64,000 bases of DNA. It comes from Escherichia phage vB_Eco_NicPhage. The notes under the pieces are model-generated. The model saw only the letters and a list, made by a program, of their open reading frames with translations, was not told the origin of the DNA and made no database searches. Made by a program: the position numbers and the translations under genes. Of the stretch, positions 8,099-29,213 are shown one piece after another; position 1 is the first letter of the stretch, and each line of letters starts with the position of its first letter. The stretch lies in the sequence record OY726582; one strand, given 5' to 3'.

Positions 8099-9546
8099 TG
8101 ACTGATATAACTCTGGTAGATTTACCATATGTTGACGGCCCGCCAGACGCGGGTCAGAGTCGTATTGAATGGATTAAAAACGATGAAGAAATAACAGGTG
8201 CTGACACAAAATACGGTTCTGAAGGTGTAATGAACCGCCCTATTGTTGAAGTTCAACGTAACGTAGAAGCGTTAGATGTTAATATTAAAACTATAGCATC
8301 TTCTTTGAATACGGCCAATGAAGATATCAAAGTTATTCAAGGTATTTTAGATGTTTCTGGGGATGTTGATGCTCTTGCACAGATAGGCCAGAACACCCAA
8401 GATATTGATGTCATTAAAGTCACAGTTCAAACCCATGCTAATGAATTGAATGATTTGAATGAACATATTGATGCGAATACTGATGATATTGGTGTTTATA
8501 ATCAGGAAACAGATTCAGTTTATAGAACGGTTCGTAATGACCTGCTTTGGATTAAAAATGAATTAGGACAATATACTGGTCAAGATATTAATGGGGTTCC
8601 TACTCCAGGAAATGATAGCACTGGTATGAAACGCCGTATTATGACTAATAGCTCCGTAATTGTTGACCACGGTGTTCGATTAACTGATTTAGAAACTAAA
8701 TTTGCTGATTCTGACGTCGGCTCTTTAACTATTGAAGTCGAACACTTGCGCGAAGAAATGGGCCCTCGTACTTCTTTCACTACTCCAGTGTTTAGTCGTC
8801 TTTCCGGTATTGATTTAACTTTGTCGCGTCAAAATGCTGACTTGGATGGCATTAAACAGTCTATTGGGTATCCTAATACGACTTCTATTATTACTACAAC
8901 TAATGCGAATAGTTCAGCAATAAACGACATTAATCTTGAGCTCAATCAATCAGGTGGTATTAAACCTCGTTTGACTACGGTAGAAACTGCCATTGGCGCT
9001 GATGATTTGCCTACTACAATCCAAGGACGTATTAAACTCAATACTGATGCTATCGGAGCATTGAACACTGTTGTCGGCTCTGATTCTTCGTCAGGACTGC
9101 GTTTTAATGTGTCATGGTTAAATAACGTAGTTGGTGTTGACGCTTCAGGTGGGAAACCGGAACCAGACGGCTCTTTGCTTTATCGTACTCGAGAGCTTGA
9201 AGGAACTATCAGTGGGATGAGTAATGACATTCAGAACATTCAAACTGATGTTGGGACTAATAGCACAGGAATTAAGGGTTCTGTAAACACATTAAATACT
9301 CTTATAAATGGCACCAACCCAAATGGTTCGACTGTTGAAGAACGCGGTATATTGCCTACAGTTAAAAGTCATGATATGACAATTAATGGTTTAACTTCTA
9401 GAATTGCTACTCTTGAAACTGATTTGGCCGCTGCAGAAGCTGAAATCCAAACTCTTAAGGACGCTGGATATATTGAAGATGCTCCTTCAGACGGTAAATT
9501 CTATGTTCGCAAAGATGGCGCATGGGTTGAACTTCCTACAGCTTAA
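8098..9546 (+). CDS. wac: Fibritin (whisker antigen control protein) with C-terminal foldon
   Basis: 482 aa; coiled-coil-like heptad-rich body; C-terminal GYIEDAPSDGKFYVRKDGAWVEL matches the fibritin foldon motif. Confidence 0.9.
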   Translation: MTDITLVDLPYVDGPPDAGQSRIEWIKNDEEITGADTKYGSEGVMNRPIVEVQRNVEALDVNIKTIASSLNTANEDIKVIQGILDVSGDVDALAQIGQNTQDIDVIKVTVQTHANELNDLNEHIDANTDDIGVYNQETDSVYRTVRNDLLWIKNELGQYTGQDINGVPTPGNDSTGMKRRIMTNSSVIVDHGVRLTDLETKFADSDVGSLTIEVEHLREEMGPRTSFTTPVFSRLSGIDLTLSRQNADLDGIKQSIGYPNTTSIITTTNANSSAINDINLELNQSGGIKPRLTTVETAIGADDLPTTIQGRIKLNTDAIGALNTVVGSDSSSGLRFNVSWLNNVVGVDASGGKPEPDGSLLYRTRELEGTISGMSNDIQNIQTDVGTNSTGIKGSVNTLNTLINGTNPNGSTVEERGILPTVKSHDMTINGLTSRIATLETDLAAAEAEIQTLKDAGYIEDAPSDGKFYVRKDGAWVELPTA

Positions 9547-9552
9547 TGAAAA

Positions 9553-9566
9553 GGGCCTTCGGGCCC
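9553..9566 (+). other. RNA hairpin GGGCC-UUCG-GGCCC after wac (no U-tract)
   Basis: GC stem with UUCG tetraloop 7 nt after the fibritin stop, followed by the gp13 ribosome-binding region. Confidence 0.45.
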
Positions 9567-9578
9567 TAAAGGATTTAT

Positions 9579-10505
9579 ATGTCAGGTTATAATGCACAAA
9601 ACCCTAAAGAATTAAAGGATGTAATATTACGTCGTTTAGGCGCTCCTATTGTAAATGTTGAATTAACTACGGACCAAATTTATGATTGTATTTCACGAGC
9701 GTTAGAACTTTATGGCGAATACCATTTTGACGGGTTGAATAAAGGTTTCCATGTATTTTTTGTTGATGACGAAGAAAAATACCGTCACGGCGTATTTGAT
9801 ATGCGTGGTTCTAACGTATTTGCCGTAACAAGAATTATAAGAACAAATGTTGGCTCTATTACTTCAATGGATGGTAATGCAACTTATCCATGGTTCACCG
9901 ATTTCCTTTTAGGAATGGCTGGTGTTTCAGGTGGTATGGGTAGTAATTGTGGTAAATTCTACGGCCCAAACGCTTTTGGCGCTGACCTCGGGTATTATTC
10001 TCAATTAGTATCTTATATGGGTATGCTTCAAGATATGATTGCTCCTCTTCCAGATTTTTGGTTTAACTCTGCAAACGAGCAATTAAAAGTAATGGGTAAC
10101 TTTAGACAGAAAGATGTCATTATCGTTGAATCGTATGTTCGCTCTTATATCGAGACCCATAAGATGGTAGGAAATACAGTAGGGTACGGTCAGGTTGGTC
10201 CTCGTGATTCATGGTCTATTTCTGAACGTTATGATAATCCAGACCATAATTTGGTAGGACGTCGAGTTGGTGAAGATCCTGCAACTAAACAAGGCGCATA
10301 TAACAACCGCTGGGTTAAAGATTATGCAACTGCATTAGCTAAAGAGCTTAATGGACAAATTCTTGCTAAACATCAAGGTATGATGTTACCTGGTGGCGTC
10401 ACTGTTGATGGTGTTCGATTAATTGAAGAAGCTCGTTTAGAGAAAGAAGCTTTACGAGAAGAGTTATATTTACTGGACCCTCCTGCAGGTATTTTGGTAG
10501 GTTAA
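9579..10505 (+). CDS. 13: Neck protein gp13
   Basis: 308 aa (T4 309) in syntenic position after wac. Confidence 0.85.
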
Positions 10506-10506
10506 T

Positions 10507-11142
10507 ATGGCAACATACTACAGATTGTATATTACAACATTTGAAACATCCACCGGTATAAAGATTTATGGTGGTAAACACAAATCAGTTTACGAAGACC
10601 CTTCAAAAGACCCTTATACTGGGTCTGGTACCTTTATACGAAGGGCCAAAAGAAAATACGGTCCGTCTTGTATAAAAGAAATTATATGGTCTAAGCCATT
10701 TGAATCTAAAGCTCTAATGGACGAAGCTGAAGAGTTACTGGTAGATGAATTATCCATTTTAGAAAATTGCGCAAATCTTGTTAAAGGTGGTGCAGGCGGA
10801 AGGTCGTATATTAACCCAGAAGATAATCCATCTATAGGACAAAAACGTTCAGCCCAATCTAAAAAGAAAATGTCTGACGCCGCAAAATCAAGAAAATGGA
10901 CTGAAGAAGGGTTAAGAAAACGTAAAGAATCTACAGCAAGAATGTGGAAAGATTTCAAACATAGACATCCTGATTTTTCTGGTTCAAAAAATCCGGCAGC
11001 TCGAAAAGTTAGTGTAAATGGTAAAATATTTAACACCTGCAAAGAATGTGGTGAAGAATTTAATATCACATCAAGCGCGGTTATAGGCCGATGCAAAAAC
11101 AACAAACCTAAATGGGCAGGATGGAATTATGTCGACGTATAA
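10507..11142 (+). CDS. GIY-YIG family homing-endonuclease-like protein (Seg-like), inserted between genes 13 and 14
   Basis: N-terminal YRLYITTF...GIKIYGGKH...YTGSG resembles the GIY-YIG catalytic module; basic Lys/Arg-rich central region (NUMOD-like) and C-terminal Cys-containing segment (CKECGEE...GRCKN); no gene at this position in T4; 3' end overlaps gp14 start by 14 nt. Confidence 0.65.
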
Positions 11143-11893
11143 TTCAAATTTATTTGCAAAGTTAGAAAACCGAGAAGGCTATTCTAAAACTAATGAAACC
11201 GAGATTTTAAACAAATACGTGAACTTCAACAAATACGAAAATAGTCAAACCCTAGCTGATGTGTTAGTAGCAGAAAGCATACAGATGCGCGGTATTGAAT
11301 GTTTTTATGTTCCACGTGAATATGTTGCCGTGGACCTTATCTTTGGTGAGGACCTTAAAAATAAATTTACTAAAGCATGGAAATTTGCTGCATATCTGAA
11401 CTCTTTTGAAGGTTATGAAGGAGCGAAATCGTTCTTCAGCAACTTCGGAATGCAAGTTCAAGACGAAGTTACATTATCTATTAACCCAGGTCTTTTCAAA
11501 CACCAGGTCAACAATCAGGAGCCTAAGGAAGGTGATTTAATATACTTCCCAATGGACAACAGTTTGTTTGAGATTAACTGGGTTGAACCATATGACCCAT
11601 TCTATCAAGTAGGTAAAAATGCGATTCGTAAAATTACTGCAGGCAAGTTTATTTACTCTGGCGAAGAAATCAATCCGGTGCTTCAGAAAAATGAAGGTAT
11701 CAATATACCTGAATTTAGTGACTTGGAACTTAACCCTGTTAGAAATCTTGACGGTATCCATGACATTAATATCGATGAATATTCTGAAGTTGAGCAAATC
11801 AATTCAGAGGCAAGTGAATACGTTGAGCCGTATGTAGTAGTTAACAACCGTGGTAGACAAAATTCACCATTTGACGATGGGTTTATGAATTAA
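11129..11893 (+). CDS. 14: Neck protein gp14
   Basis: 254 aa (T4 256), syntenic, N-terminus ..NLFAKLEN.. recognised. Confidence 0.85.
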
Positions 11894-11945
11894 TAAATAG
11901 ATAAGATAAAGCAAACACCGGTCGAAAGGCCGGTTAGGAGAAATG

Positions 11946-12894
11946 ATGTTTGGTTATTTTTACAACTCGTCGTTCAGGCGATATATCACAATGATGGGCG
12001 ATTTGTTTTCAAATATCCAAGTTAACCGTCAATTGTCTACAGGCAATAAATTAATTAGAGTTCCTATTACGTATGCATCTAAAGAGCACTTTATGATGAA
12101 ACTTAATAAATGGACCTCTATAAACTCACAAGAAGATGTGGCTAAAGTCGAAACTATTCTACCACGTATAAATCTCCAAATGGTGGATTTCGTTTATAAC
12201 CCAACGTTTAAAACGAATATATTGAATAACTCTCTTTTGAGTAAATCGACTAAGGATATTGTAGACCAATACAACCCATCACCAATTAAAATGATTTTTG
12301 AACTGAGCATCTTTACTCGTTATGAAGATGATATGTTCCAAATCGTTGAGCAAATTATTCCATATTTTCAGCCGCATTTTAATACGACTATGATTGAGCA
12401 ATATGGGCAGGATATTCCATTTGAAAGGGATATTAAAGTCGTATGGATGGCAGCAGCAATGGATGAACAAATAGACGGTGATAATTTATCTCGTCGACGT
12501 TTAGAGTGGTCATTAACATTTGAAGTAAATGGATGGATGTATCCTCCGGTAGGCGCAGCTGAAGGCCTTATTAAAACGACTTATCTTGATTTTCATGCTA
12601 AACGGTGATAATTTATCTCGTCGACGTTTAGAGTGGTCATTAACATTTGAAGTAAATGGATGGATGTATCCTCCGGTAGGCGCAGCTGAAGGCCTTATTA
12701 AAACGACTTATCTTGATTTTCATGCTAATGAACGAGACCTTCAAACAGCCGCCAGTGTTTTTGAATCAGTTGATACAGAAATTAAACCGAGAGACGTTGA
12801 AGCACAAGATTGGAATGGTGAAGTTGAACAAACTTATACTCATGATATTCCAATCCCGTCTCCACCAACCCCTCCTGGTCCTAGAAAACAATAA
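11946..12894 (+). pseudogene. 15: Gene 15 (tail sheath stabiliser / tail completion protein) interrupted by a 127-bp tandem duplication; split into ORFs 11943..12608 and 12586..12894
   Basis: The two ORFs share the identical peptide DNLSRRRLEWSLTFEVNGWMYPPVGAAEGLIKTTYLDFHA; removing one 127-nt copy restores a single ORF of about 272 aa, the T4 gp15 length; the first ORF ends HAKR-stop two codons into the second copy. Confidence 0.75.
12475..12728 (+). repeat. Perfect direct tandem duplication, 2 x 127 bp (copy 1 12475-12601, copy 2 12602-12728), inside gene 15
   Basis: Read directly: acggtgataatttatctcgtcgacgtttagagtgg...cttgattttcatgctaa occurs twice back to back; 127 is not a multiple of 3. 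Confidence 0.9.
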
Positions 12895-27763: not shown

Positions 27764-28432
27764 TTATTTTAATGTTACGAAAGAAGAATTACGAGTTTCA
27801 CGAATTAGAACTGATCCATCGCGATTAATATAATAAATTAAGCTAAATAATGTTTGGTGAGCAGAAGCATGCACAAAACTAGTTGGGCGAGATTTCCAAT
27901 CTGGGGTTTCGGCTATCCATTGATAAATCCACCAAGGAACAGTAACATATCCTGGGCCTTTGCCTAATTTAATGAGTGTAGGACTAAAATTTTCAGGCAG
28001 AACAAATTTTACTTCTTTATTTACCTCTGGCTCCGGCTCTTTTTCAGATTCAACAACCTGAGTAATTGCTTCTTCGAATTTATCATGGTCGAATTCTTTT
28101 TCTTGTTCGACAACTTCTAATACTTCAACTTGTTCTGTTGGAGAATCAAACAACAGAATAGCTTCTTCTTTAACTTCTTCGTTGGTGAAATTAACACCGT
28201 CCACATCATCTGCGGCAGTAATTAAATCGGTGATAGATAATCCATCGGTTTCAGGTAATGGTTCATCAGCCAGTGCGTTAAGAGCTTCTTCGATATCAAT
28301 AACAATATTATCGAATGATTTTGTTTTCTTAACACTAATGCCAAATTGTTCCGCATATTCAAACAGTTTAGCTTTGGCTTCCTTTTTATCAGAAAGAGCA
28401 CGTAACTCTTCAATATAGTCTTTATCGATCAT
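27764..28432 (-). CDS. inh: Inhibitor of prohead protease (Inh)-like acidic protein
   Basis: 222 aa (T4 Inh about 226), acidic, directly downstream of hoc as in T4; assignment is by position and length. Confidence 0.65.
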   Translation of the reverse strand: MIDKDYIEELRALSDKKEAKAKLFEYAEQFGISVKKTKSFDNIVIDIEEALNALADEPLPETDGLSITDLITAADDVDGVNFTNEEVKEEAILLFDSPTEQVEVLEVVEQEKEFDHDKFEEAITQVVESEKEPEPEVNKEVKFVLPENFSPTLIKLGKGPGYVTVPWWIYQWIAETPDWKSRPTSFVHASAHQTLFSLIYYINRDGSVLIRETRNSSFVTLK

Positions 28433-28445
28433 GGTATTTCCTCAT

Positions 28446-28453
28446 TATAAATA
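28446..28453 (+). promoter_or_regulatory. Late promoter TATAAATA upstream of the SegE-like gene
   Basis: Exact TATAAATA 17 nt upstream of the Met at 28470. Confidence 0.45.
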
Positions 28454-28469
28454 TAACTATATTTATTAC

Positions 28470-29213
28470 ATGGAAAAGAGTATGTATCACTTTGTTTATG
28501 AGACCGTAAATTTAATTAATGGTAAAAAGTACATTGGCAAACATTCTACAGAAAATTTAAATGATTCGTATCTAGGGTCAGGTGTTGCCTTAAATCGCGC
28601 TATCAAAAAATACGGAGAAGAATCATTTAAACGTTCAATAATTAAACAATTTGAAACTTCCGCTGAAGCTTTAGAATACGAAGCTCAGTTAGTAACAGAG
28701 GATTTGGTCAAATCTAACGAGTATTATAATATGCGCCAAGGCGGTGAAGGTGGAAGGTATAAGTACACCGAAGCTGATAAGACTAAAATGTCTAATAGTG
28801 CTAAAGAACGAATAAAGAGGCTTGGTCATAATCTTTTAGGAAAACACAGATCGGAAGAAACAAAAAGAAAACTATCTGAAACAAATAAACGTCGATACTC
28901 TGAAGACCCAACATGCCACGGGCGGTATGGTACAGGAAAGCCAAAGATTGATAAAATTAAAGGTCCTAAAAATCCTACAACTCTAAATAAAATTTGTGTT
29001 AACAACGGTAAAGAAAACAGATTTATATCAGCCGAGGACCCGATGCCTGAAGGATTTGTAAAAGGAATGGTCCAACTTAATAGAAAATCTAGAAAGGGCT
29101 GTGAAGTAAAACCTACGACCACCGGCAGAATATGGGTAAATAACGGGGCTATAAATAAATTAGTAAATCCGTTATCCATCCCAGATGGATATGTTAAAGG
29201 CCGTTTAAGGTAA
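28470..29213 (+). CDS. GIY-YIG homing endonuclease with NUMOD3-like repeats (SegE-like by position)
   Basis: YHFVYETVNLINGKKYIGKHS...YLGSG is a canonical GIY-YIG N-terminus; repeated GxxxSEETKxK modules (NUMOD3-like); start moved from ORF-track 28431 to in-frame Met at 28470 because a TATAAATA late promoter (28446-28453) lies inside the longer ORF. Confidence 0.8.
   Translation: MEKSMYHFVYETVNLINGKKYIGKHSTENLNDSYLGSGVALNRAIKKYGEESFKRSIIKQFETSAEALEYEAQLVTEDLVKSNEYYNMRQGGEGGRYKYTEADKTKMSNSAKERIKRLGHNLLGKHRSEETKRKLSETNKRRYSEDPTCHGRYGTGKPKIDKIKGPKNPTTLNKICVNNGKENRFISAEDPMPEGFVKGMVQLNRKSRKGCEVKPTTTGRIWVNNGAINKLVNPLSIPDGYVKGRLR

Follow-up and report, generated by a model that had tools for sequence, protein, structure and literature searches.

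Which gene has come to lie between the neck genes 13 and 14 of this phage, and how is gene 14 still translated behind it? In T4 a single nucleotide separates the two, and the site is empty. In the 64,000-nt stretch of Escherichia phage vB_Eco_NicPhage analysed here (record OY726582; hereafter the window), which is that of a Mosigvirus-type T-even phage, the site is occupied by an open reading frame (ORF) that begins with an ATG and encodes 211 amino acids (aa). An earlier reading of the letters alone (the original prediction) had placed a GIY-YIG homing-endonuclease-like gene exactly here, had rightly stated that T4 carries none, and had considered an active nuclease, a domesticated DNA-binding protein and a decaying insert. 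Our analysis supports the homing-endonuclease reading overall, through the protein family, the selection acting on the gene and its presence or absence among relatives. We put at roughly 80% the probability that the ORF encodes a functional free-standing T-even Seg-family homing endonuclease that spreads by homing; its cleavage activity, target site, immunity and homing we infer by analogy with characterised enzymes.

A Seg-type protein with a variant GIY-YIG domain

This is no chance ORF, because its full-length product matches PHROG_314 'homing endonuclease' (E 2.6e-37), an exhaustive profile search finds 7100 representative proteins that match the family profile (E<=1e-3), and the identical protein has been deposited from phages F2, SQ17 and RPN187. 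The deposited labels are 'putative endonuclease', 'GIY-YIG endonuclease', 'homing endonuclease' or, misleadingly, 'segC'. The window gene is an uncharacterised member of a well-known kind of gene, at a site that is empty in T4.

The predicted layout of the protein comprises a SegF-type GIY-YIG domain (aa 1-~95), a basic NUMOD3 linker and an I-TevI-type helix-turn-helix (HTH). Searches of Pfam and NCBIfam with the single protein yielded only sub-threshold matches to I-TevI_DNA-bd, NUMOD3 and TIGR01453 (C-terminal half), and phmmer against PDB returned noise and a weak match to 1I3J; since these single-sequence searches gave no GIY-YIG match, profile and structural methods were needed. Thus, the domains expected from searches with hidden Markov models (HMM) were recovered in part: PHROG_314 covers the whole protein and NUMOD3, though sub-threshold here, is matched in 13/14 family members (best E 1.7e-6), while a Pfam GIY-YIG domain is not found. 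The resemblance of the N-terminus to the GIY-YIG module, noticed by eye, is upheld by the family profile alignments, and the Lys/Arg-rich region behind it is a helical linker with a NUMOD3-like motif. For the C-terminal region, PF20987 is matched in 13/14 family members, the family profile finds the I-TevI DNA-binding domain 1I3J among PDB sequences (E 7.6e-7), and the best Foldseek match is 1i3j_A (probability 1.00). The protein therefore ends in the NUMOD-type/HTH region, predicted to bind DNA, that is typical of Seg proteins. The Cys residues to which the original prediction drew attention are present, and they lie in the HTH and form no zinc finger. We rejected this candidate because there are only three of them, all in the HTH, where the family conserves C181 but neither C178 nor C196.

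The N-terminal domain has the GIY-YIG fold, a three-stranded antiparallel sheet with flanking helices in about 100 aa, and carries the motifs Y-R-L-Y8, Y21-G-G23-K-H25, D35-x-Y37-x-G-S-G41, K50-Y-G52, E75, N90 and G94-G95. In alignment with T4 SegA-F the Seg N-domain signature Y-x-G-x-H-x-[ST]...D-x-Y-x-G-S-G...K-Y-G...E...N...G-G is complete. To place the catalytic residues, 68 diverse N-domains were drawn from the 7100 profile relatives and their profile was aligned to I-TevI 1-97 (hhalign, 88% probability, E 2.8e-6). This sets Y21 on I-TevI Y17, G23 on G19, E75 on E75 and N90 on N90, the last two pairings being obtained with MAFFT as well. Y21, G23, Y37, G39, G41 and E75 are invariant in all 68 domains and N90 in 67. 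The protein thus has the metal-binding Glu and the conserved Asn, and Y21-G22-G23 supplies the Tyr and Gly of the 'YIG' element in strand 2.

The string GIKIYGG had been taken for a degenerate 'YIG' motif. The 68 N-domains and T4 SegA-F show instead that this is the normal form of the family: Y-R-x-Y occurs in 49 of the 68 domains, position 25 is basic in 67 (37 Arg, 29 His as in the window protein, 1 Lys), and T4 SegA-F, which all have His at this position, read YYGTHST, YIGVHST, YVGVHKT, YIGAHAT, YIGKHST and YAGKHES. Table 1 of PMC2988022 gives experimental activity for SegA, B, C, E, F and G and marks SegD as ND. The odd residues are therefore the norm of an active subfamily and no sign of decay.

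All seven T4 Seg proteins were extracted and compared with the window protein. The N-domain HMM matches SegF, B, C, D, E and A (E 2e-29 to 9e-23) and gives no match to SegG. SegF scores best of the T4 proteins (E 2.3e-29) and shares 37% identity with the window protein over aa 4-98 (97 aa). Both have the strand-1 pattern Y-R-x-Y-I (F-Y-R-T-Y-I-V in SegF) with a Tyr-to-Tyr spacing of 13 residues, and both have G-K-H-x-S, N-P..D-x-Y-x-G-S-G, K-Y-G and W-S-K. Moreover, segF too is a promoter-less cassette packed against its neighbours, with an 11-bp overlap with the upstream ORF (PMC2988022). The C-terminal halves, however, cannot be aligned (blastp covers aa 4-98 only), segF lies between soc and 56 rather than between 13 and 14, and cleavage and homing have been demonstrated for SegF whereas we deduce them for the window protein. 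SegC is the sole T4 Seg protein that aligns over the full length (33% identity, 198 aa, aa 4-197, E 1.8e-15); it shares the H-K after the YxG motif and the C-terminal layout of NUMOD3 and HTH, but differs in having a canonical Y-x-Y-x-I-T-N strand 1 with 11-residue spacing where the window protein has Y-R-x-Y, and its gene lies between 5.1 and 5.3. At 33% identity SegC is a paralogue and not an orthologue, and the label 'segC' in the Phi1, SP18 and VR26 records is therefore misleading; several related records carry this label. Different from I-TevI of the T4 td intron (PDB 1LN0/1MK0, 1I3J/1T2T; 245 aa), the window gene lies outside any intron, and its product, which is the shorter of the two at 211 aa, lacks both helix 1 with Arg27 and a zinc finger in the linker.

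The insert has captured the start of gene 14

The gene had been described as spaced by 1 nt from gene 13 and by 14 nt from gene 14. The former holds, as the gene 13 TAA (10503-10505) is followed by a single nucleotide before the endonuclease ATG; the latter is in fact a 14-nt overlap, the start of gene 14 lying within the endonuclease ORF. Nor does the insert occupy an intergenic gap in the proper sense, since it opens with the first four codons of gene 14. This became apparent when the gene 13-14 junction was compared in relatives, as had been proposed, and both empty and occupied sites were found. The empty site of Mosigvirus phages, to which that of T4 is almost identical, reads GGTAGGTTAAT ATG GCA ACT TAT GAT AAA AAT (gp14 MATYDKNLF). 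Thus KAW3E185, which is empty, has GGTAGGTTAAT ATGGCAACTTATGAT (MATYD...) and the window has GGTAGGTTAAT ATGGCAACATACTACAGA (MATYYRLY...). The same Shine-Dalgarno region and first codons open the endonuclease ORF, which places the insert inside the first codons of gene 14, whose start it uses. Gene 14 begins anew at an ATG made by the endonuclease codons TGG AAT TAT G (W-N-Y-V).

The comparison also revealed a re-coded patch at the 5' end of gene 14, which affects 12 codons and changes four amino acids (A2S, D5N, K6S, G16E). The remaining 705 nt of the gene differ at 5 positions between the insert-bearing and the empty allele, and in gene 13 the final 100 nt do not differ in any insert-linked way between phages with and without the insert. 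The patch is common to all six insert-bearing genomes compared and was found in exactly the 12 insert-bearing records. We propose that it is either a self-immune version of the target or DNA that was transferred together with the cassette. No donor lineage for it was found in the database, where the best matches without the insert are 73-84% identical.

The same capture is seen in Gaprivervirus when RZ is compared with the empty sites of DK-13 and TH41: the empty gp14 begins MATYDSRLF, the RZ endonuclease begins with an identical ATG GCT ACT TA, gene 14 of RZ restarts as MRNSYDASLF, and divergence is concentrated near the junction. A wider comparison took in 11 lineages, namely the window, Gaprivervirus RZ, Slopekvirus phT4A and KP13MC5-1, Krischvirus Phi1 and six metagenomic ones. 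The gene lies between 13 and 14 in all 11, and in all 11 the gene 14 ATG is contained in the terminal aromatic-x-Tyr-x codons of the endonuclease (usually W-x-Y-x). The M-A-T-Y start taken from gene 14 is present in only three of them (the window, RZ and P0007); the others have a start of their own 2-17 nt past the gene 13 stop, except for Phi1 with its 66-nt spacer. The homologues at this site are 53-64% identical in the core family and 27-29% in Phi1. The genes of the other Straboviridae (RZ/SP18/VR26, phT4A/KP13MC5-1, Phi1 and the six metagenomic ones) thus share with the window gene the slot and the overlap with the gene 14 ATG, and those of Gaprivervirus also the presence/absence polymorphism and the re-coding of the junction, yet they are separate lineages with their own start contexts.

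In capturing the gene 14 start and putting another in its place, a conserved trait, the insert varies a known habit of T4 endonuclease cassettes, which embed signals for downstream genes.

The annotation of some related records departs from these starts. In VR26 (locus L025, 939-1574) the endonuclease is annotated from a downstream start at 993, while the full 211-aa ORF is intact from an ATG that overlaps the gene 13 stop. In SP18 (L026, 1571-2359) gene 14 is annotated from 1673, about 100 nt past the ATG that overlaps the endonuclease.

The same cassette occurs on different backbones

Is the cassette mobile? Twelve records (11 phages, F2 being represented twice) carry the insert and 145 have a contiguous empty junction. 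Over the 13-ORF-14 stretch the window is 98.3-99.3% identical to F2, S143_2, moskry, SQ17 and others. Among six Mosigvirus phages the insert differs by 1-4 nt whereas their backbones differ far more; SQ17, for example, shares only 62-72% identity with the other phages in gene 12 (short tail fibre) and wac (fibritin). In gene 12, wac and gene 13, the nearest relatives of the window are insert-free phages, with APCEc01 reaching 99.9% in gene 13. Similarly, 9 Gaprivervirus records have the insert and about 24 close relatives do not. Between RZ and SP18 the insert has a dS of 0.038 as compared to 0.22-0.29 for the flanks, and the VR26 insert sits on a gene 13 3' end of the empty-site type while those of RZ and SP18 sit on another left flank. 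The element is therefore polymorphic in its presence, as Seg genes are, and an insert that is younger than its flanks and resides on several backbones is what homing predicts.

Two phages deserve a remark as regards their backbones. F2 (L007; MN864145.1 / NC_054913.1) is filed as Tequatrovirus ('Tequatrovirus efftwo'), yet over the 13-endonuclease-14 region it shows 99.3% identity to the window as well as to phages classed as Mosigvirus, which may reflect a taxonomic inconsistency or a mosaic genome. In SQ17 (L010) genes 13-17 are 97-99% identical to those of the other Mosigvirus loci L007-L017, with a swapped host-range/whisker module (1-2968) directly ahead of the endonuclease locus.

Active element, binder or remnant?

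The gene is intact in all 12 Mosigvirus copies, and the sister copies examined are likewise full length without frameshift or stop. Only 8 sites vary among six Mosigvirus copies, 6 of them synonymously. The Gaprivervirus sister copies are sufficiently diverged for an estimate, and between RZ and VR26 the dN/dS of the endonuclease (Nei-Gojobori) is 0.041 overall and 0.027 in the nuclease domain, which equals that of the essential neighbours gene 13 (0.033) and gene 14 (0.034); in the C-terminal part it is 0.071. A dead gene might persist here because its deletion would remove the start codon of gene 14, and with the gene 14 Shine-Dalgarno sequence and ATG in the last codons of the ORF only precise excision would be tolerated; its motifs are, besides, non-canonical relative to I-TevI. 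But the latter are the family norm, and purifying selection together with the full-length copies largely refutes a decaying insert, so that we consider such a remnant very improbable.

Strong purifying selection would also be compatible with a domesticated protein that has lost its nuclease and serves to bind DNA site-specifically or to regulate the late neck/tail operon, in the way of I-TevI, whose autorepression is documented (PMC2988022). Indeed, the canonical GIY Tyr and R27 have no match relative to I-TevI and the protein itself matches no Pfam GIY-YIG model. Then again, a pure binder needs none of Glu75, Asn90 and Tyr21, which are invariant or nearly so in the 68 N-domains; the unusual N-terminal motif is also that of T4 SegF, which is listed as active (PMC2988022, Table 1); a useful regulator would hardly be missing from 145 of 157 close records; and the youth of the insert relative to its flanks speaks for selfish spread. 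We therefore regard domestication as quite unlikely. An active nuclease might also be maintained mainly for a benefit other than homing, either by excluding competitors or by driving recombination or amplification of neighbouring genes, as is reported for SegB and anti-defence loci. Seg activity is documented to cause marker exclusion (PMC2988022), a paper of 2026 describes SegB-driven amplification of anti-defence genes (PMC13096335), and the adjacent gene 12/wac host-range module is highly mosaic among insert-bearing phages. The locus, however, gives no sign of cargo beyond the endonuclease in its cassette of about 0.66 kb between two structural genes, presence in 12 of 157 records is a low frequency for something of strong benefit to the phage, and such a benefit would be compatible with homing rather than exclude it. 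As the chief reason for the presence of the gene we think it unlikely.

Several points nevertheless weigh against an active homing endonuclease. The Pfam GIY-YIG models PF01541 and PF19835 have no match at E<=1 to the window protein, and Foldseek did not recover the GIY-YIG catalytic domain. The Pfam models give no match at E<=1 in 12 core family members either; the profile-detected relatives P0014, P0052, P0054 and P0076 pass PF19835 (SegE_GIY-YIG), which is a transitive link only. In the alignments by hhalign and MAFFT, I-TevI Y6 stands opposite T10 and not opposite the conserved Y8, which is the strand-1 Tyr in 63 of the 68 N-domains and lies two residues upstream of T10 on the same predicted strand face. 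Furthermore, of the catalytic residues to be checked by alignment, Glu75 and the 'YIG' Tyr are present while the central Arg is absent: neither hhalign nor MAFFT finds an Arg at the position of I-TevI R27, the helix-1 segment FEKRWKRH being missing from the window protein, and this Arg belongs to the definition of the GIY-YIG superfamily (PMC1564403). The helix-1 Arg occurs in none of the 68 N-domains and T4 SegA-F all lack the R27 helix, so that its lack is a trait of the whole Seg family, which lowers strict membership by motif but not the case for activity. The catalytic geometry is assumed from SegF. As to mobility, the re-coded patch could be merely foreign DNA that moved with the cassette, ordinary recombination, which is frequent in T-even phages, could produce mosaic flanks as well, and T4 Seg enzymes can cut hundreds of bp away from their insertion site (PMC2988022), which touches on the target site proposed below. 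Finally, the searchable literature holds no biochemical or genetic data for the window protein, its target or any member of the 13/14 lineages.

How a Seg endonuclease may home into gene 14

How would a Seg enzyme at this site spread? By analogy with SegF, SegG and I-TevI, and following the model of intron-less homing (PMC2988022), the C-terminal HTH/NUMOD3 half would, in a mixed infection, bind the insert-free 13/14 junction of a related phage. Judging from where the alleles differ, its target would most likely be GGTAGGTTAATATGGCAACTTATGATAAAAATCTTTTCGCC, in the conserved beginning of gene 14. The GIY-YIG domain would make a double-strand break near the bound junction, and repair templated by the insert-bearing genome would carry the endonuclease gene over to the recipient along with neighbouring markers. 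The carrier itself may be protected by the re-coded first 48 nt of its own gene 14. The endonuclease itself would be read from the gene 13-14 message by means of the ribosome-binding site that once served gene 14 together with that gene's first four codons, and the cassette would restore expression of gene 14 with the Shine-Dalgarno sequence and ATG in its own last codons.

Since the conserved terminal K-W-x-x-W-x-Y codons of the endonuclease encode the gene 14 ATG in all 11 lineages, and in most of them its Shine-Dalgarno sequence too, the cassette might have taken over the initiation of gene 14 translation, an 'addiction by start-codon capture' that would stabilise the gene independently of homing. 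We offer this suggestion tentatively and hold it to be somewhat doubtful. If gp14 synthesis does depend on ribosomes finishing the endonuclease ORF, the element would set the dose of a neck protein and could be lost only by precise reversal.

Expression signals

No match to the T4 late-promoter consensus TATAAATA was found between 3142 and 15213 on either strand; there are only sites with one mismatch, one of them within the ORF at 10557. Scans for sigma-70-like promoters and for terminators gave counts at or below those expected from shuffles. The gene therefore acts like a promoter-less cassette carried by the gene 13-14 message, in keeping with what has been described for segC, segF and segG (PMC2988022). 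A search for group I introns and any other Rfam family gave no match at E<=1 in 9000-12500, and the 1-nt gap to gene 13 and the 14-nt overlap with gene 14 leave no room for an intron structure. The gene is thus free-standing rather than intron-encoded.

Regulatory hairpins at the two translation starts were considered and rejected, as they are no better than in shuffled sequence (z-scores +1.27, -0.47 and +0.85). An 8-bp stem, GAAUUAUG / UAUAAUUC, with the loop UCGACG (window 11124-11151) encloses the gene 14 AUG and pairs the last codons of the endonuclease with codons 4-6 of gene 14; RZ has a similar 6-bp stem. The 8-bp stem is weak (region z-score -0.47) and varies between lineages. A small GAAUU/AAUUC stem across this AUG recurs in some lineages, and being weak and heterogeneous it was not accepted as a supported element. 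The stem at this AUG results from the W-N and N-S codons.

In the whole window TATAAATA occurs 18 times as compared to 7.9 expected from shuffles, with 12 of the sites falling in the 15.2 to 37.6 kb interval of the + strand. One, at 28446, is located just upstream of a second Seg-type GIY-YIG gene at 28482-29213 (+; stop-to-stop 28419-29210; N-domain HMM E 5.4e-24), which is flanked by an inh-like and a uvsW-like ORF. The product begins with MYHFVYETVNLINGKKYIGKHST, almost the sequence found in T4 SegE, which identifies the gene as the SegE orthologue.

Implications

The window gene leaves the general understanding of homing endonucleases unchanged. With it, a site-specific Seg lineage is added from a locus that T4 leaves empty, and natural target-plus and target-minus alleles are at hand, since 145 phages have the empty site and the T4 site is near-identical, so that cleavage and homing can be tested directly. 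Among the T-even phages employed in therapy, Seg enzymes influence marker exclusion and the mosaicism of genomes, and the insert described here adjoins the highly mosaic gene 12/wac module. Moreover, the SegF-type variant of the GIY-YIG domain is widespread and yet missed by current Pfam models, which is relevant to annotation.

Features of the gene 13-14 region and neighbours

Coordinates of the endonuclease gene, its domains, the junction elements and the adjacent neck genes in the window
Feature	Position	Strand	Evidence
Gene 13 (neck / head-tail adaptor), upstream neighbour	9579..10505	+	ORF list; PHROG_211 head-tail adaptor Ad2, E 2.2e-43
Captured gene 14 translation start, GGTAGGTTAAT + ATG GCA ACA TAC (M-A-T-Y), now that of the endonuclease	10496..10518	+	
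Probable free-standing Seg-family GIY-YIG homing endonuclease gene, 211 aa	10507..11142	+	
N-terminal putative catalytic domain, SegF subtype of GIY-YIG (aa 1-100)	10507..10806	+	
NUMOD3-like DNA-binding motif (aa 105-123), in Lys/Arg-rich helical linker	10819..10875	+	Pfam NUMOD3, E 6.3e-3, sub-threshold
C-terminal I-TevI-type helix-turn-helix, predicted DNA-binding (aa 159-204)	10981..11118	+	Pfam PF20987 (I-TevI_DNA-bd), E 9.9e-5, sub-threshold
Replacement gene 14 start in the last endonuclease codons: AGGA 11118-11121, 7-nt spacer, ATG 11129-11131	11118..11131	+	
Gene 14 (neck / head closure), downstream neighbour, start from cassette	11129..11893	+	Pfam T4_neck-protein, E 2e-127; PHROG_679
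Re-coded 5' patch of gene 14: 16 substitutions in nt 4-48 vs empty-site allele	11132..11176	+	

Upstream of gene 13, the 32-nt spacer between wac (end 9546) and gene 13 (start 9579) contains the GC-rich palindrome GGGCCTTCGGGCCC at 9552-9567. The annotations of KAW3E185 and MM02 treat this palindrome as a putative terminator, but on the + strand it lacks a T-run behind it.

Downstream of gene 14, gene 15 (11943-12894; tail sheath stabiliser/completion) is interrupted by a 127-nt tandem duplication (12472-12725), the two copies of which, 12472-12598 and 12599-12725, are 99% identical. As the length of the repeat is no multiple of 3, the reading frame shifts and two ORFs, 11943..12608 (221 aa) and 12586..12894 (102 aa), take the place of the gene. 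No contiguous duplication junction was present among the matches listed (149 matching phage records), and the duplication may be an assembly artefact, the mark of a defective genome or a recent event. An intact gene 15 of 822 nt is found in all 11 relatives fetched.
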